Source: Escherichia coli (GTDB lineage Bacteria; Pseudomonadota; Gammaproteobacteria; Enterobacterales; Enterobacteriaceae). Taken from it: a stretch of 64,000 bases of DNA. Position numbers and translations under genes: made by a program. The DNA is taken from NCBI RefSeq assembly GCF_003334335.1, contig NZ_QOWQ01000013.1; one strand, given 5' to 3'. Shown here piece by piece: positions 11,648 through 63,786 of this stretch. The notes beneath the pieces are model-generated. The model did no database searches. It was not told the DNA's origin and saw nothing but the letters and a program-made list of their open reading frames with translations. Within the stretch, counting starts at the first letter, position 1; every line of letters starts with the position of its first letter.

Positions 11648-11716
<69 letters not shown>

Positions 11717-30483: not shown

Positions 30484-30747
30484 ATGATCGATCTGGAGAA
30501 CCAGGAACGGGAGATTATCAATTTAATGTTCAGCCAGGGTATATCCTGGCTAGCCGCCGTGCGTATCAGGCATAAATTATCGCTTGCTGAAGTAAGTAAA
30601 ATGTTAGGTATCTCGATTAATTCTCTAAAACAGATCGAAAAGACGGAACGGCTTAGCTCAAACATCAAAAGCAAAATGGCAGAAATTTATGGTTGTCCAT
30701 CAGAGTTGCTGATATGCCCTTCCTGGATGACGGCTGAACATAAATGA
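30484..30747 (+). CDS. hypothetical small XRE-family helix-turn-helix protein (87 aa)
   Basis: ORF with HTH-like segment KLSLAEVSKMLGISINSLKQIE; AT-rich; occupies the position where I recall yjjJ in K-12; no recognised named homolog. Confidence 0.45.
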   Translation: MIDLENQEREIINLMFSQGISWLAAVRIRHKLSLAEVSKMLGISINSLKQIEKTERLSSNIKSKMAEIYGCPSELLICPSWMTAEHK

Positions 30748-30845
30748 ATAGATTCGTGAATAGATACTTGAATGGATTTTATTTTCTATCCATATGAAAA
30801 ATAATAGTAAATCTATAAATCAGTTGCTATTGATGAATAGATACT

Positions 30846-32958: not shown

Positions 32959-34281
32959 TTATTCGCTGATACGGCGATAGACAGTTGGTGTGCTTTCCGG
33001 TGCTTTATCGGCAAGTTTAATTGCCGCTTTCACCGCTTTCGCCGCTTCCTGCCAGCTGTTTTCGTCTTTCGCGTGGATAACCGCCAGCGGACGCTGACCG
33101 TCTACCTGGTCGCCCAAACGCGCCATATCAGTAAAGCCGACGCTGTAATCGATGGTGTCAGATGCCTGACGACGACCGCCGCCCATTGCAACCACTGCCA
33201 TCCCCAGCGCGCGGGTATCCATTTCACTGACAAAACCTTCGGTATCAGCATAGACTGCTTTCGTCAGCATCGCTGTCGGCAGATACTTCGCGTAGTTCTC
33301 AACGAAGTCGGTCGGGCCTTTTTGTGCCGCTACCATACGACCAAAGACTTCTGCCGCTTTACCGTTGTCCAGCACCGCCTGCAATTTCGCGCGCGCTTCG
33401 GCGTCATCTTTCGCCAGTTTGCCGGAGATCAGCATCTCCACACACAGCGCCATCGTGACATCAAACAGACGCGGGTTACGATATTCACCCGTCAGGAACT
33501 GCACCGCTTCACGAACTTCAACCGCGTTACCGGCACTGGAGGCCAGCACCTGATTCATATCGGTGAGCAGCGCGGTGGTGCGCACGCCAGCGCCGTTAGC
33601 CACGCCAACAATCGCTTCAGCAAGGGCTTCAGAGAGTTCGTAGGTCGGCATAAATGCACCGCTACCCACTTTCACGTCCATCACCAGCGCATCCAGACCT
33701 TCCGCCAGTTTCTTCGCCAGGATCGAGGCAGTGATCAGCGGGATGGAGTCCACGGTTGCGGTAATATCACGGGTCGCGTAGAAACGTTTATCCGCCGGAG
33801 CCAGTGAGCTGGTCTGACCGATAATCGCCACGCCGACGTCTTTAATAATTTCGCGGAAACGGTTGTCATCCGGGAAAATGTCGAAGCCAGGGATGGATTC
33901 CAGTTTGTCGAGCGTACCGCCAGTATGACCGAGGCCGCGACCGGAGATCATCGGAATATAGCCGCCGCAGGCAGCGACCATCGGCCCCAACATCAGCGAA
34001 GTGACGTCGCCGACGCCACCAGTGGAATGTTTATCAACAATCGGGCCATTCAGATGCAGGCTTTTCCAGTCGAGAACGGTTCCTGAATCTCGCATCGCCA
34101 TGGTCAGCGAGACACGCTCAGGCATTGTCATATCGTGGAAGAAAATGGTCATCGCGAGGGCGGCAATCTGCCCTTCGGAGATAGTGTTGTCGCGAATACC
34201 GTTGATAAAGAAACGAATTTCTTCATCGCTCAGCGCATGACCATCACGTTTTTTACGAATAATTTCTTGTGCGAGAAACAA
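32959..34281 (-). CDS. deoA: thymidine phosphorylase
   Basis: 440-aa [51 protein letters not shown]. Confidence 0.95.
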
Positions 34282-37830: not shown

Positions 37831-39128
<1,298 letters not shown>

Positions 39129-40485: not shown

Positions 40486-40611
40486 AAGCGTCTCCTTTAC
40501 CATAGTTAATGTCACCGCTTGATATGAGCGTGAAAATCACTCAATGCGATATTTTTAGTGTGGTGCACATCGCGCCTCCCGACAAAGTTCGGGAGGACGA
40601 ATTACGACGAA

Positions 40612-41217
40612 TTACTTAGTTTTCAGATCATTTTTAACGCTTTTCACACCATCTACCGCTTTGGCGATACTTTCAGCACGGTCGCTCTGTGCCTGGGAAT
40701 CGACGGTACCGGAGAGCTGAACCACGCCGTCGGTGGTTTCAACTTTCACATGACGGGAAGGGACGATATCGTCCGCCAGCAGTTTGGCTTTGATTTCACT
40801 GGTGGTGGCGGTGTCACCCGCGTAGCCCTTCACCGAGCCTTCTTTAGCGTCGCGAACGTGCAGTTTGTCGCTGACAGAGGTCACCCCTTCAACGCCTTTC
40901 GCCACTTTCACTGCCTCTTCGGCCTGGGCCTGGCTTTCAACGAAACCGCTCAGGGTCACGACTTTTTGATCGGTTTTTACAGAGATATCGGTGCTCTTGA
41001 TGTTGTCATGATCCACCAGGGCCGCCTTCACTTTCGCGGTGATGGCGCTGTCATCCATGAAATTACCGACTTTATTCATAGAGCTATCGACTTTTTGCCC
41101 TGCGCTTTCATTGGTAGTCTGTGCGTTGTTTTCCGCGTAGGCAGAGCCGGTCGCGACGGCAGAGGTCAACATTACAGCCAGCAGAGTTTTCGAAATCTTC
41201 AGTCTTGTCATAGTCAT
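40612..41217 (-). CDS. osmY: osmotically inducible periplasmic protein OsmY (two BON domains)
   Basis: ORF 40612..41295 trimmed to [28 protein letters not shown] (201 aa). Confidence 0.95.
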
Positions 41218-57689: not shown

Positions 57690-59051
57690 GTGGAAAAAGA
57701 AAATATCACCCTCGATCCGCGTTCTTCATTTACTCCATCTTCGTCGGCAGATATTCCCGTGCCACCAGATGGATTAGTTCAACGCAGTACCCGAATTAAA
57801 CGCATTCAAACCACCGCCATGTTGTTATTATTTTTTGCGGCGGTAATCAATTATCTCGACCGCAGTTCGCTGTCGGTAGCAAATTTAACGATTCGTGAAG
57901 AATTGGGATTAAGTGCCACCGAAATCGGCGCTTTGCTCTCCGTGTTTTCACTCGCTTACGGGATTGCGCAACTTCCTTGCGGCCCACTATTGGATCGTAA
58001 AGGCCCGCGCCTGATGCTGGGACTCGGGATGTTCTTCTGGTCACTGTTCCAGGCAATGTCTGGCATGGTGCACAGCTTTACGCAGTTCGTGTTGGTGCGT
58101 ATCGGTATGGGGATTGGTGAAGCGCCGATGAACCCATGCGGTGTAAAAGTCATTAACGACTGGTTCAACATCAAAGAGCGCGGACGCCCGATGGGCTTCT
58201 TCAACGCAGCTTCTACCATTGGCGTTGCCGTAAGCCCACCGATTCTGGCGGCGATGATGCTGGTGATGGGCTGGCGTGGGATGTTTATTACCATTGGTGT
58301 GCTGGGGATTTTTCTCGCCATTGGCTGGTATATGCTCTATCGCAACCGCGAGCACGTAGAACTGACTGCCGTTGAACAAGCTTACCTCAATGCTGGTAGC
58401 GTGAATGCCCGCCGAGATCCGCTCAGTTTTGCCGAATGGCGCAGCCTGTTCCGTAACCGCACAATGTGGGGAATGATGCTCGGATTCAGTGGCATCAACT
58501 ACACTGCGTGGCTGTATCTGGCCTGGCTTCCTGGTTACCTGCAAACAGCCTATAACCTGGATTTAAAAAGCACAGGGTTGATGGCGGCTATCCCTTTCCT
58601 GTTTGGGGCTGCCGGGATGCTGGTCAACGGTTACGTTACTGACTGGCTGGTCAAAGGGGGAATGGCTCCGATTAAAAGCCGTAAGATCTGCATTATTGCC
58701 GGGATGTTCTGTTCTGCCGCCTTTACGCTGGTCGTACCGCAAGCGACAACATCCATGACGGCGGTTCTGCTGATTGGCATGGCACTGTTCTGTATTCACT
58801 TTGCCGGAACATCCTGCTGGGGCTTGATCCACGTCGCAGTTGCTTCTCGCATGACTGCGTCGGTGGGCAGTATCCAGAACTTTGCCAGCTTCATCTGCGC
58901 CTCTTTCGCGCCGATCATTACTGGTTTTATTGTTGATACCACCCATTCATTCCGTCTGGCACTAATCATCTGCGGTTGCGTCACTGCGGCGGGTGCACTG
59001 GCGTACATCTTCCTGGTTCGTCAGCCGATCAACGACCCACGGAAAGATTAA
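57690..59051 (+). CDS. lgoT: L-galactonate:proton symporter (MFS)
   Basis: 453-aa 12-TM MFS ORF. Confidence 0.9.
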   Translation: MEKENITLDPRSSFTPSSSADIPVPPDGLVQRSTRIKRIQTTAMLLLFFAAVINYLDRSSLSVANLTIREELGLSATEIGALLSVFSLAYGIAQLPCGPLLDRKGPRLMLGLGMFFWSLFQAMSGMVHSFTQFVLVRIGMGIGEAPMNPCGVKVINDWFNIKERGRPMGFFNAASTIGVAVSPPILAAMMLVMGWRGMFITIGVLGIFLAIGWYMLYRNREHVELTAVEQAYLNAGSVNARRDPLSFAEWRSLFRNRTMWGMMLGFSGINYTAWLYLAWLPGYLQTAYNLDLKSTGLMAAIPFLFGAAGMLVNGYVTDWLVKGGMAPIKSRKICIIAGMFCSAAFTLVVPQATTSMTAVLLIGMALFCIHFAGTSCWGLIHVAVASRMTASVGSIQNFASFICASFAPIITGFIVDTTHSFRLALIICGCVTAAGALAYIFLVRQPINDPRKD

Positions 59052-59057
59052 TCTCCC

Positions 59058-59090
59058 TATGCCCGATAACATTTTGCTTATCGGGCATTT
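59058..59090 (+). terminator. lgoT rho-independent terminator
   Basis: gcccgataa-cattttgc-ttatcgggc hairpin followed by attttt. Confidence 0.55.
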
Positions 59091-59099
59091 TTATGGCGA

Positions 59100-60764
59100 T
59101 TAAAACGTTTCCCAGTTCTCCCCGCTATCTGCCACGGCCATTTTACGCGGCGCAGCTGGCGTCACGGTTTTTACCACAGCCGATGTTTCACGCTGCTGTT
59201 GCTGCTGTTGCTGAATCCGGAACACTGCCACAGCTTCGGTCAGGCGACTGGCCTGCTCTTCCAGCGCGGCGGCGGCAGCGGCAGATTCTTCCACCAGCGC
59301 AGCGTTCTGTTGGGTTACTCTGTCCATCTCAGCGACCGCTAAGCCAACCTGATCGATACCACGGCTCTGCTCATCAGAAGCCGAAGCAATTTCGCCCATA
59401 ATGTCCGTCACGCGGGTCACGGCACTGACAATCTCCGCCATTGTTTCCCCTGCGCTTTCGACCAGCGTAGAGCCAACATCTACTTTCCCCACCGAGTCTT
59501 CAATCAGGCTTTTAATTTCACGAGCCGCCTGAGCGCTGCGCTGGGCCAGATTACGCACTTCACCCGCGACCACCGCAAAACCGCGCCCTTGCTCACCCGC
59601 GCGCGCTGCTTCAACCGCCGCGTTCAAAGCGAGAATATTGGTCTGGAAGGCAATGCCGTCAATTACGCTGATAATATCGGCGATTTTCTGCGAACTGGTG
59701 GAGATATCGCGCATGGTCTGCACCACGTTATCCACCACTTTGCCGCCGCGTTGCGCCGTTTCAGAAGCACTTAACGCCAGGTGGCTGGCCTGGCGCGCAT
59801 TTTCGGCGTTCTGCTTCACCGTTGCGGTCAGTTGCTCCATGCTGGCTGCCGTCTCTTCCAGCGAAGCGGCCTGTTGCTCGGTGCGCGAAGAGAGATCGTT
59901 ATTGCCGGTAGCGATTTCGCTGGCACCGCTATAGATGGCATTGGCCCCGTTGCGCACATCACCGACGGTACGCATCAGCTCTCCCTGCATATGGCGCAAA
60001 CTCTCAGCCAGTTGCCCCATCTCATTAGAGCCATCCACCTCAATCGGTTTCACCAGATCGCCGCCTGCAATATGACGAATGCTGTCAATCAGGCGATTCA
60101 TTGGCGCTACCAACGAGGCTTTAATACCGAACCAGACGGCGAAGATGACCGCCAGTACGACGATCATCACGCCCACCAGAATCCACATCGCCTGGCTGTA
60201 GGAGGCATTATTATCGCTGACGGCGATATCATAGAGCCGATCGTTTTGCTCCATGTAAGCCACATACTGCTTCTCGAAACCGTCCTGATATCCCTGGGTC
60301 GGCTGATCAAAGAACTCGTTGATTTTGCCTGCACCTAACAGTTGGATCAGCTCCGCCAGCGCATTGTGATAAATATCGTAATTACGTTTGATCTCTGCCG
60401 CTGCGGCGGTGCTCTGACGCGGGTCACGCGGCAACGCTTCGTAATCCGCCCAGTTTTTTTCCGCCTGTTTCAGCGAAATACTGGCACTCTGCATCAGCTC
60501 AGCAACGGTTGAACCGCTACCAATATTATTCTGATCCATCATGTAGCGGATACCCGCGCGGTTGAGGGTGTTACGCGTCTGCAACAACGCGACCCAGCTG
60601 CCATTCAGCGTGGATTGCTGCTGGCGAATGGTTTGTAAAACAGTGAAATTTTCTTTGTCATTCTTTAAGGCATTAAAGAACAGACCGCCTGATGTCAGTT
60701 GTAAAAGGCCAAAAACGGCCAAAACCAGCAGTAAGCTGGTCACGATCTTGATACGTTTTAACAT
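59100..60764 (-). CDS. tsr: methyl-accepting chemotaxis protein I (serine receptor) Tsr
   Basis: ORF trimmed to [21 protein letters not shown]...; C-terminus NWETF; 7-Gln run [13 protein letters not shown]. Confidence 0.95.
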
Positions 60765-60795
60765 GGTTTCTCTTTCCACTAGACAGATACACTGG

Positions 60796-60903: not shown

Positions 60904-61809
60904 ATGGTACAAAGTATCAATCTTCTTCGAACCAGTGATACTCCTATGGCTTATAGCATCGATATCATCTCCTGCATTACCGAACGGTTTATGGCGTTAA
61001 CAGCCACTGAAAAGCGTATCGCACAATTTATTCTTGATGACGTCTCTGCCGCAGTAGAGTTGCCAATTGCTGAGCTGGCACGGTTAACGCAAACCAGTCA
61101 GGCGTCGGTGACGCGTTTTGCCCGTGCACTGGGGTGCAAAGATGTCCGCGAGTTGAAAGTCAAACTGGCGCAGTCACTGGCTGTCGGGCAGCGGTTTATT
61201 CTCGATGTACCGGATCTTGACGGTGTTCAGGGGATCTACGAAGCGATTATTAGCGTGCTGGAGACGCATCGTCGTTCGCTGGATATGAATGCCATCAGCC
61301 AGGCTGTAAGCTGGTTAAGTCAGGCGCGGCAAATTCTTGCGTTAGGAACTGGCGGCGGTTCCACTATCTGTTCACAGGAGATTCAGTACCGTTTATTCCG
61401 TCTGGGGCTACCGGTGGTCAGTCAGAATGATGCCCTGATGATGAGAATGATGTGCTCGGCAGTCATGCCGCAGGATGTGGTGATTGTGCTTTCGCTGGGC
61501 GGTTATACACCGGAAATCATCGAAAGTGCGGCAATCGCCCGTCAGTATGGCGCGCGTGTTATTGCCATTACGCCAGCACAAACACCGCTGGCGGAACAGG
61601 TGGATCTGGTATTGCCGTTACTGGTTCAGGAAAGTGATTACATCTTTAAGCCCACCCCTTCCCGCTACGCGATGTTAGCCATGGTCGATGTACTGGCAAC
61701 AGAACTGGCAATGGCAAATAAAGCGCAGGCGAAAGATCGCCTGCGGCGGATAAAACTCGTGTTAGACAGCCACCGTGGGGGCGCTAACCGCCAGCCACTT
61801 GGCGATTAG
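60904..61809 (+). CDS. RpiR/MurR-family transcriptional regulator (HTH plus SIS domain)
   Basis: 301-aa ORF with N-terminal HTH (LTATEKRIAQFILDD...IAELARLTQTSQASVTRFARALG) and SIS-like core; true start may be an internal Met. Confidence 0.8.
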   Translation: MVQSINLLRTSDTPMAYSIDIISCITERFMALTATEKRIAQFILDDVSAAVELPIAELARLTQTSQASVTRFARALGCKDVRELKVKLAQSLAVGQRFILDVPDLDGVQGIYEAIISVLETHRRSLDMNAISQAVSWLSQARQILALGTGGGSTICSQEIQYRLFRLGLPVVSQNDALMMRMMCSAVMPQDVVIVLSLGGYTPEIIESAAIARQYGARVIAITPAQTPLAEQVDLVLPLLVQESDYIFKPTPSRYAMLAMVDVLATELAMANKAQAKDRLRRIKLVLDSHRGGANRQPLGD

Positions 61810-61818
61810 CATTGTCGG

Positions 61819-63288
61819 TTATGCTTCTTCAGGTTTGGTGATCACGACACTCTGGTTTTCACGCTCATTGGTGATAATAGCCAAAGCTTCTTCCCGGCTG
61901 ACCTGACTTGCTGGCGTTACCAACGTCACCAGTACGCCAGCGACCAGGCTGCCCAGCACTGACGGAATACACGGGTTACCCCAGTAAGCCAGCCAGTCGG
62001 CATTCATCAGCACCACAATTGACATCACCATACCGCTCACTAACGCCGCCAGCGCGCCCTGCCAGTTAAAGCGTAGCCAGAAGCGACCGAGAATCGAGCA
62101 GATAAACAGCCCGGACATCAGCATCGAAATCATTTTGGTAATGTAGCTGATGATGTCATTAGAGGTCAGAGCAAAGACCAGCGCCAGGCCAATAACAAAG
62201 GTCAACATCCAGCGTGAGTAAGTAATGGCCTTGTCCTCCGGCGGCATTCTGCCGGTAATCATGGTGTAGACGTCGCGCATCATAATCGCCACCGCCGCGA
62301 TGGCATCGGAGCTGGCAGAAGACATGGTGGCTGAAAGCCCGGCAATCAGCACCACCAGCCCAAGAATGGCAGGTAAGAAACTGGTCGCGAACAAGAAGGC
62401 GTAGTTGCTGTTTTCCAGATTTGGGTTCATGGTGAACGCCGCCATGCCGATAATGGCAGGCAAAATCGAGAAGAACAGATATAACACCCCAGTAATAACA
62501 AACGAACGGCGTACAGAGGGAACATCTTTACCCGAGTAAATACGCTGGCGATAAGACGGTGTGGCCAGTACGCCGACACCAATAACCAGCGCCAGCGAAA
62601 GCGCAGGTAGAACGCCCATTTTATCAATCGCAAACAGGCTCATCGCTTTTGGGTCCATCGCCTGTTCAATCGCACTCCAGCCGCCAACGTGAACAACGGC
62701 GAGAATAGCCATCAATATAAAGCCAAAGAACAGAATTAAGGCCTGAATGGTGTCTGTCCACACTACCGCCGAATAACCGCCGATAATAACGTAAATCGCA
62801 AAAGCTAAGGCGATAATTAATTTTGCTACAGTAAGATCAATACCTGTTGCCCAGGCAAGATACATACTGCCACCTAATATATGCGCCCCCAGCCAGCCAA
62901 TAGAGGCAATAAATATCATCAGGCCGACAATATTTTTAATTAAATGACTCCCGCCAGTATAATAAGATATTTCTTCACTCATGGTCATAAAACGTAATTT
63001 ACGTACCGGTGCAAACAGCCACGCCACCAGTAATATACCTACGGCCCCACCGACGCCATAAAGCATTCCGGCCCAGCCATTGCTGTAGCCAAAGCCCACG
63101 GCGCCCATACTGGAACCCGTGCCAACCATCGTGGCAACGGTTGAGCCCAGCGTCAGAAACAGCGGCAACGAACGCCCGCCCAGCAGAAAATCTTCTCCGC
63201 TTTTCTGATTACGAGACACAAACCAACCAAGCCAAATCATGGCGATGGCATAAATAATAAAGCCGACTAAAAAGATATGACTGTTCAT
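61819..63288 (-). CDS. sodium:solute symporter (SSS) family transporter
   Basis: 489-aa polytopic membrane ORF with SSS-like architecture; substrate unknown. Confidence 0.8.
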   Translation of the reverse strand: MNSHIFLVGFIIYAIAMIWLGWFVSRNQKSGEDFLLGGRSLPLFLTLGSTVATMVGTGSSMGAVGFGYSNGWAGMLYGVGGAVGILLVAWLFAPVRKLRFMTMSEEISYYTGGSHLIKNIVGLMIFIASIGWLGAHILGGSMYLAWATGIDLTVAKLIIALAFAIYVIIGGYSAVVWTDTIQALILFFGFILMAILAVVHVGGWSAIEQAMDPKAMSLFAIDKMGVLPALSLALVIGVGVLATPSYRQRIYSGKDVPSVRRSFVITGVLYLFFSILPAIIGMAAFTMNPNLENSNYAFLFATSFLPAILGLVVLIAGLSATMSSASSDAIAAVAIMMRDVYTMITGRMPPEDKAITYSRWMLTFVIGLALVFALTSNDIISYITKMISMLMSGLFICSILGRFWLRFNWQGALAALVSGMVMSIVVLMNADWLAYWGNPCIPSVLGSLVAGVLVTLVTPASQVSREEALAIITNERENQSVVITKPEEA

Positions 63289-63390
63289 AATTCACATCCT
63301 GCCAGTAGAGAGAGAATAAAGTAAGAGTTCCCGGAGTGCTGAATGTATTCAGCACTCAATTGCGGTCTATTTTTTTAATTCTTAAATTTA

Positions 63391-63786
63391 TTAGCGGGTC
63401 GCGTTATAACAGGTCACATCGACTTCAACTTTACAATCGACAACCAGATCAGCTACACAACAAATACGTGCAGGCGGATTCTCGCCAAAAAATTCTCTGA
63501 ATACTTTATTAAATGACTGGAAATAGCGGGCGTCGGTCAGGATCACTTTCACGTGAACCACATCCGCCAGGCTATAACCGGCTTCAGTCATGATGTCGAC
63601 ACAGTTTTGGATCGCCAGTCGTGACTGTTCAACGATACCGCCTTCTACCACTTCACCGTTTTTCATGGGGGTTTGCCCGGAGACGTACAGCCAGCCGCCC
63701 GCCTCAACCGCCCTGGCAAACGGCAAATGCTGCCCGCCAGTGCCTGTTCCACCTTCCGTACCGTAACGTTTAATACTCATATTCAC
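63391..63786 (-). CDS. RidA/YjgF-family reactive-intermediate deaminase
   Basis: 131-aa ORF with typical RidA/L-PSP fold sequence. Confidence 0.85.
   Translation of the reverse strand: MNMSIKRYGTEGGTGTGGQHLPFARAVEAGGWLYVSGQTPMKNGEVVEGGIVEQSRLAIQNCVDIMTEAGYSLADVVHVKVILTDARYFQSFNKVFREFFGENPPARICCVADLVVDCKVEVDVTCYNATR

Follow-up and report, generated by a model that had tools for sequence, protein, structure and literature searches.

The 64-kb stretch of Escherichia coli DNA analysed here (the window) carries, on its minus strand, the tsr coding sequence for the serine chemoreceptor Tsr (MCP-I; 59100..60764), an open reading frame of 554 amino acids plus a stop codon. Translation from the ATG that RefSeq uses in strain N61 gives MLKRIK... 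(a mechanically assigned GTG start lies 15 nt further upstream, at 60779), and the product ends with the NWETF pentapeptide (59103..59117, minus strand), the role of which has been described previously (PMC7390727, PMC8609364 and PMC10561060). The protein is identical to the 551-aa Tsr of K-12 MG1655 at 548/554 positions, and the sole gap in the alignment is one of three residues inside a glutamine run. Database proteins identical or nearly identical to it contain PF02203 (TarH), PF00672 (HAMP) and PF00015 (MCPsignal), and the matching gene is labelled tsr by RefSeq in 5,386 genomes. By every feature tested (domains, near-identity to the K-12 protein, pentapeptide tether and chromosomal position), the gene is a Tsr orthologue, in agreement with the initial annotation. 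The other differences from the K-12 receptor are Q92 (E in K-12; 60491), Y178 (H in K-12; 60233) and G548 (E545 in K-12; 59123); G548 lies two residues before NWETF, and the negative charge that E545 places next to the docking peptide in K-12 is gone.

Downstream of tsr lie lgoT and lgoR, as in K-12, and the upstream flank matches that of strains N61 and 2014C-3338, in which the gene is likewise preceded by the block found at 60904-63786 of the window (a MurR/RpiR regulator, a Na+/solute symporter and RidA); in N61, a D-aminoacylase gene is located beyond this block. Among E. coli strains (loci L001, L002, L083-L102 and L223), the upstream neighbour is btsT, hpaR-hpaG, a hypothetical gene or the MurR/RpiR block, and the downstream neighbour is lgoT-lgoR or a TRAP transporter operon, so that tsr sits between two variable segments. 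The convergent lgoT (end 59051) and tsr (end 59100) are separated by a 48-bp gap that contains a terminator-like hairpin (59059..59088), a pattern match from a consensus scan with an 11-pair stem followed by a T run. An antisense open reading frame on the plus strand (58976-59401; 141 aa; TTG start), which extends across the 3' ends of lgoT and tsr and across the glutamine repeat, was considered and rejected as a gene for want of support.

The glutamine run comprises Q518-Q524 (59193..59213, minus strand; in-frame codons and Tandem Repeats Finder). The plus strand of 59193-59213 reads CTGCTGTTGCTGCTGTTGCTG, the reverse complement of which is CAG CAA CAG CAG CAA CAG CAG in the tsr frame, that is, two copies of a 9-bp unit, CAGCAACAG (unit 1, 59205-59213; unit 2, 59196-59204), and a partial third copy (CAG, 59193-59195), all on the minus strand. 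The initial annotation had described this repeat as cag-caa-cag twice and then cag, encoding seven glutamines (Q7) in frame, and its coordinates were exact. Tandem Repeats Finder places the repeat at 59192-59213 (period 9, 2.4 copies, 100% match). Within the 64-kb window it is the sole perfect repeat with a period of 4-12 and at least 12 matching offsets, and 200 order-2 Markov simulations yielded 0 repeats of this kind. In a run of seven Gln codons, we estimate that the CAG/CAA pattern of codons 1-3 would match that of codons 4-6 by chance with a probability of about 0.16-0.2. The reality of the unit therefore rests chiefly on the steps between natural alleles, which lie one unit apart (12, 21 or 30 bp) and are the best evidence that the unit is real in mechanistic terms.

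Protein and DNA alignments revealed that K-12 tsr is without exactly one CAGCAACAG unit relative to the window, giving four glutamines (Q4) and 551 aa, which bears out the K-12 length and glutamine count that the annotation had given. The tract stands where it had been placed, in the flexible C-terminal tether that leads to NWETF, and lies at the start of this tether. On the basis of the published definition, in which R516 is the tether point of Tsr, I517 is the first flexible residue and the K-12 tether has 30 aa (PMC10561060), the tether of the window receptor spans I517-E549 (59118..59216, minus strand; coordinates from the reading frame), and the interval between R516 and NWETF in the open reading frame, which ends …SGENWETF, is 33 residues. 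Consistent with this boundary, the cryo-EM model 8C5V extends no further than residue 516 and the 1QU7 construct terminates with RIQQQ. The K-12 receptor (MCP-I; 551 aa; PDB 6S1K and 8C5V) resembles that of the window in its locus, as defined by lgoT and lgoR, in the end of its methylation helix (…AVAVFRI), in its tether sequence and in NWETF, but has one 9-bp unit fewer and a tether of 30 rather than 33 residues, and represents a minority allele (~23% of genomes). Strains with ten glutamines (Q10) have a tether of 36 residues.

We surveyed tract length across isolates, as the initial annotation had proposed together with alignment to the reference. A whole-gene search detected tsr in 5,388/5,426 complete E. 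coli genomes; most of the evenly sampled matches had the length of the query, and K-12-type matches were 9 bp shorter. An 81-bp Q7 query centred on the tract (≥95% identity indicating the same length and 80-95% a 9-bp gap) matched in 5,383 genomes, over its full length and at ≥95% identity in 4,060 and at 80-95% in 1,323; among the gapped matches, strain 19AR1724 has a longer tract of three units plus CAG (Q10, 557 aa). Allele counts from the identity bands of a Q10 query were discarded because an 18-bp gap splits the match into two 100%-identical pieces and Q4 and Q10 share a band; the bands of a Q4 query were likewise slightly contaminated (H71). An anchored query (short left flank, Q10 tract and long right flank), for which coverage is 100% for Q10, 77% for Q7 and 64% for Q4, identified Q10 (30 bp, 557 aa) in exactly 75 of the complete E. 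coli genomes (1.4%). Q7 (21 bp) is thus the majority allele, with ~4,060 genomes (75%), followed by Q4 (12 bp) with about 1,200-1,250 (23%, K-12 laboratory strains included), in a collection that is clonally biased towards many K-12 laboratory strains and many O157:H7. Evenly spaced samples gave 45 Q7, 14 Q4 and 1 Q10 in 60 rows (anchored query) and 44, 14 and 1 in 59 full-length rows (Q4 query). In metagenome contigs (n = 120), the tract was 21 bp in 92 (77%), 12 bp in 24 and 30 bp in 4, and a variable-gap pattern scan of the same contigs detected no other tract length between 10 and 40 bp. Across the 22 sampled genomes, the 120 contigs and the genome-wide searches, 12, 21 and 30 bp were the sole lengths found, as slippage in whole units, the source of variation envisaged by the annotation, predicts.

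Carriers of Q7 include O157:H7, O104:H4 and O25b:H4 strains, Q4 occurs in K-12 derivatives and in some avian pathogenic strains, and Q10 carriers include LF82 and HS; the match lists of the genome searches displayed no obvious link between allele and host or source. Short repeats can be miscalled by some technologies. That the length differences are sequencing or assembly artefacts of a low-complexity repeat is nevertheless refuted by the population data and deserves practically no credence, given the identical 21-bp tract in ~4,060 independently finished genomes and 92 metagenome contigs and the fact that all alleles are in frame and whole units apart. The window tract is the standard allele, essentially the situation that the initial annotation had named as speaking against its own reading, and it is already known in the sense that the alleles are plainly visible in RefSeq and in the PDB, where the 3ZX6 construct is Q7 and 6S1K is Q4. 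Residues 236-341 of 3ZX6 chain A, an Af1503 HAMP-Tsr chimera, include the Q7 tract, and the construct was therefore made from a non-K-12 tsr. No description of the Tsr Gln-tract polymorphism was found in the literature searched.

To place the alleles in a wider context, we compared the segment with that of other enterobacteria. Among the matches listed, the Tsr proteins of Citrobacter, Enterobacter, Leclercia and Kluyvera mostly have a length of 554 aa and, after …AVFRI, read QQ[E/D/A/S]QQ[R/K]…, gap-free against Q7. Two non-coli Escherichia lineages, both with 554 aa, read RIQQAQQRQHE (L059/P0121) and RIQQTQQRQHE (P0122). A metagenome contig that otherwise resembles E. coli (L224 335-1999; P0120) encodes RIQQEQQRQRE, in which the repeat is imperfect, with CAG CAA GAG CAG CAA CGC CAG in place of the Gln codons and again 554 aa; its nucleotide identity to the window is 96.8% in tsr and 98.8% in lgoT, and 16/53 of its tsr differences fall within the last 150 nt, which suggests that its 3' end is either retained ancestral sequence or an import from another Escherichia lineage. 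The outgroup codons align one-to-one with those of Q7, with no gap and with VVKTVTP in register further downstream. In this outgroup set, which was drawn from the matches listed and is without the nearest named outgroups (E. albertii, E. fergusonii and Salmonella), colinearity with Q7 indicates that the seven-codon segment is old, and the shared 554 aa indicate that the Q7 length is ancestral. Q7 is thus the common form and probably has the ancestral length, and the 551 aa of K-12 most likely represent a contraction by one 9-bp unit; the direction of change, from Q7 to Q4, is one that we infer.

For phylogenetic analysis, tsr was taken from 22 further genomes picked to span the three alleles, and a tree was built with the tract excluded; adding 38 complete metagenome tsr genes gave a tree of 63 sequences (single-gene neighbour-joining, uncorrected for recombination). 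Q7 occurs in every major tsr haplotype group, and Q4 alleles form tips beside Q7 sisters in at least four backgrounds. With a 554-aa root, ordered parsimony over the 63 sequences takes no fewer than 10 unit changes, compared with 11 for a 551-aa root and 12 for a 557-aa root; in the allele-unbiased metagenome subset (38 genes), the 551-aa and 554-aa roots tie at 6 steps each. These results bear on the claim of the initial annotation that the window contains a lengthening duplication, according to which Q4 would be ancestral or standard and the lineage of the window would have acquired a derived in-frame 9-bp duplication that lengthens the tether. The two units are 100% identical in DNA, as expected soon after a duplication, K-12, the best-known reference strain, is Q4, and the tie in metagenome-only parsimony leaves both roots equal. 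However, ~75% of genomes across all major haplotype groups carry Q7, the recovered Escherichia outgroups and most close enterobacterial orthologues among the matches listed have 554 aa and are colinear with it, the Q4 alleles are placed at tips, and an expansion from Q4 would have just 3 bp of homology to use. We consider a derived duplication very improbable, and it is K-12 that appears to carry the altered length, a contraction. A path of contraction followed by re-expansion is a possible alternative because turning QQ-x-QQ-R-Q directly into a perfect repeat takes several substitutions.

Tract length does not track the tsr tree. Across tsr, the Q4 strains BEN2908 and AH21F008 are 2 nt from DA33137 (Q7) and 28 nt from K-12 (Q4), and BEN2908, AH21F008 and DA33137 share a GCA codon that starts 6 bp downstream of the tract. 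Similarly, the Q10 strains HS and S51 lie closer to a Q4 strain, JNEC-KY174 (8 nt), than to 19AR1724 and Es_ST80 (30-33 nt), which are also Q10. The tree of the 38-gene metagenome subset (0.123 substitutions per site) calls for 6 or more events, from which we estimate the whole-tract event rate at ~50x the rate of one nucleotide site. Where a strain had been assembled more than once, its allele did not change: it was Q10 in every assembly of 8178 (three), LF82 (two) and HS (two), and K-12 derivatives were all Q4 in the genome searches. This distribution suggests that single units have been gained and lost repeatedly, for which slippage is the simplest mechanism, and the modest rate makes the tract a warm spot rather than a hypermutable switch.

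At the penultimate codon of the tract, a CAG-to-CAT (Gln-to-His) variant was found at all three lengths (QQHQ, QQQQQHQ and QQQQQQQQHQ). It is present in ~9% of metagenome contigs, in 12 of the 120 proteins listed and in strain 2014C-3338 (L091), and, when tested as a single-lineage marker for an R-to-H-to-Q path, proved to lie on diverse tsr backgrounds. The variant may represent a step on the way from R(CGT) through H(CAT) to Q(CAG) or a derived change that has arisen repeatedly.

Because the trees are single-gene neighbour-joining trees without correction for recombination, part of the recurrence seen in them could reflect allele transfer. Taken to its full extent, this would mean that few mutational events occurred and that homologous recombination spread Q4 and Q10 across tsr backgrounds. 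The tsr region is recombination-prone, with flanks that differ among strains, the haplotype table looks mosaic, and the differences in P0120 are concentrated at its 3' end; some allele transfer is likely, given the clearly mosaic flanks. As the main source of the pattern, though, transfer seems unlikely to us: the Q4 of BEN2908 and AH21F008 retains the GCA codon of its lineage and lies 2 nt from its Q7 sister over 1.6 kb, so that the ends of an imported segment would have to fall only a few bases away from the tract, and the CAT variant accompanies all three lengths. The shared flanking marker argues for at least some independent length changes.

In these respects, the tract resembles the coding variable-number tandem repeats (VNTRs) of bacterial genes: the unit is short and a multiple of three, alleles lie whole repeat units apart among strains, and length change recurs independently on the recombination-uncorrected tree. 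Unlike them, it exists in just 1.3, 2.3 or 3.3 copies as three alleles and is far less variable than MLVA typing loci. Phase-variable contingency loci share with it a repeat within an environment-sensing gene and a presumed origin of variation in slippage, but the tract displays no frameshift and no on/off switching, its alleles being all in frame; with stable repeated assemblies and a rate only ~50x that of a single site, a reading as a contingency locus was rejected.

Taken together, we consider it probable, and hold this with good confidence, that the window carries the modal, ancestral-length allele of an in-frame repeat that occasionally loses or gains a unit and that persists as a stable, probably near-neutral lineage-level polymorphism. 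The tract, (CAGCAACAG)n+CAG, is situated at the junction between the helical body of Tsr and the disordered tether, where an older QQ-x-QQ-R-Q segment would have turned all-Gln in the E. coli lineage through changes at positions 3 and 6, thereby producing two perfect 9-bp units. Replication slippage or unequal exchange between the units would be the likeliest mechanism of later change, the loss of one unit yielding Q4 (551 aa, as in K-12) and the addition of one yielding Q10 (557 aa). Q7 consists of two 12-bp stretches at a 9-bp offset and should be a favourable slippage substrate in both directions; in Q4, only a 3-bp repeat (CAG…CAG) is left, and re-expansion would be expected to be much rarer. 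With 12 bp of offset homology in Q7 against 3 bp in Q4, a change from Q7 to Q4 would be easier than the reverse, which fits a scheme in which Q7 is the source state, Q4 nearly a dead end and Q10 a rarer gain. Because the 9-bp repeat lies in an unstructured linker without conserved sequence, its length changes would stay in frame and be tolerated. The outcome would be tethers of 30, 33 or 36 residues that are stable among lineages, probably as a neutral or nearly neutral length polymorphism, near-neutrality being an assumption here.

The possible consequences for adaptation can be gauged from work on Tar, in which tethers of 22, 29, 34 and 46 residues linearly shift the peak of CheR concentration by 0.128+/-0.048 nm per residue (0.233+/-0.100 nm in a second model) and alter the precision of adaptation, neighbouring methylation sites being spaced 1.05 nm apart (PMC10561060). 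Applied to Tsr, a step of 3 residues is predicted to move the CheR peak by ~0.4-0.7 nm (0.38 nm, or 0.70 nm with the second model), a small effect. In the natural alleles as in the engineered Tar variants, it is the length of a disordered tether linking the receptor body to NWETF that changes; the Tar variants, in contrast, are laboratory constructs that differ by 5, 12 and 12 residues (PMC10561060), whereas the Tsr alleles differ naturally in 3-residue steps.

A rival reading is adaptive tuning, which the initial annotation had raised and in which tethers of 30, 33 and 36 residues would be kept or repeatedly selected in different niches through the reach of CheR/CheB and the kinetics of serine adaptation. 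The dependence of the CheR peak and of adaptation precision on Tar tether length is in its favour, as is the recurrence of both gains and losses on several haplotype backgrounds. Against it, the alleles follow host or source in no obvious way in the match lists, the predicted shift is smaller than one site spacing, slippage alone would yield recurrence without selection, the event rate is modest, and functional receptors vary widely in linker length (29-39 aa within one strain and up to 91 aa, with no conserved sequence; bioRxiv 10.1101/2024.03.07.583918). Selection of this kind thus seems to us distinctly improbable. It is equally doubtful that Q4, Q7 and Q10 constitute a natural tuning knob for CheR/CheB reach, with K-12 as an atypical short-tether receptor; were this true, serine adaptation would be faster or slower, or more or less precise, depending on the lineage.

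For the window itself, the finding is of little import, since its tract is the ordinary version of a gene that has been studied in depth. A broader implication, modest but helpful, concerns how K-12 data are read: almost all quantitative work on chemotaxis takes this strain as its reference, and its Tsr allele is a minority one with a tether 3 residues shorter than that of about three-quarters of E. coli. It has been argued that the tether of Tsr (30 aa) as compared with that of Tar (34 aa) matches the positions of the methylation sites (PMC10561060); because it was built on K-12, this argument for a shorter Tsr tether rests on the minority allele, and natural Tsr tethers of 30, 33 and 36 residues cover the entire Tsr-Tar difference. 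The three alleles also provide a ready minimal natural series for applying the tethered-particle model to Tsr.

Elsewhere in the window, Tandem Repeats Finder detected further short tandem repeats at 11674-11705, 30745-30778, 33024-33047 and 40596-40615 (periods of 12, 12, 9 and 10, respectively; 2.0-2.8 copies). A larger tandem array occupies 37842-38358 (101-bp units, 5.1 copies, 94% match); the unit includes the REP-like sequence …GCCGGATGCGGCGTGAACGCCTTATCCGGCCTAC… and looks like a BIME/REP cluster.
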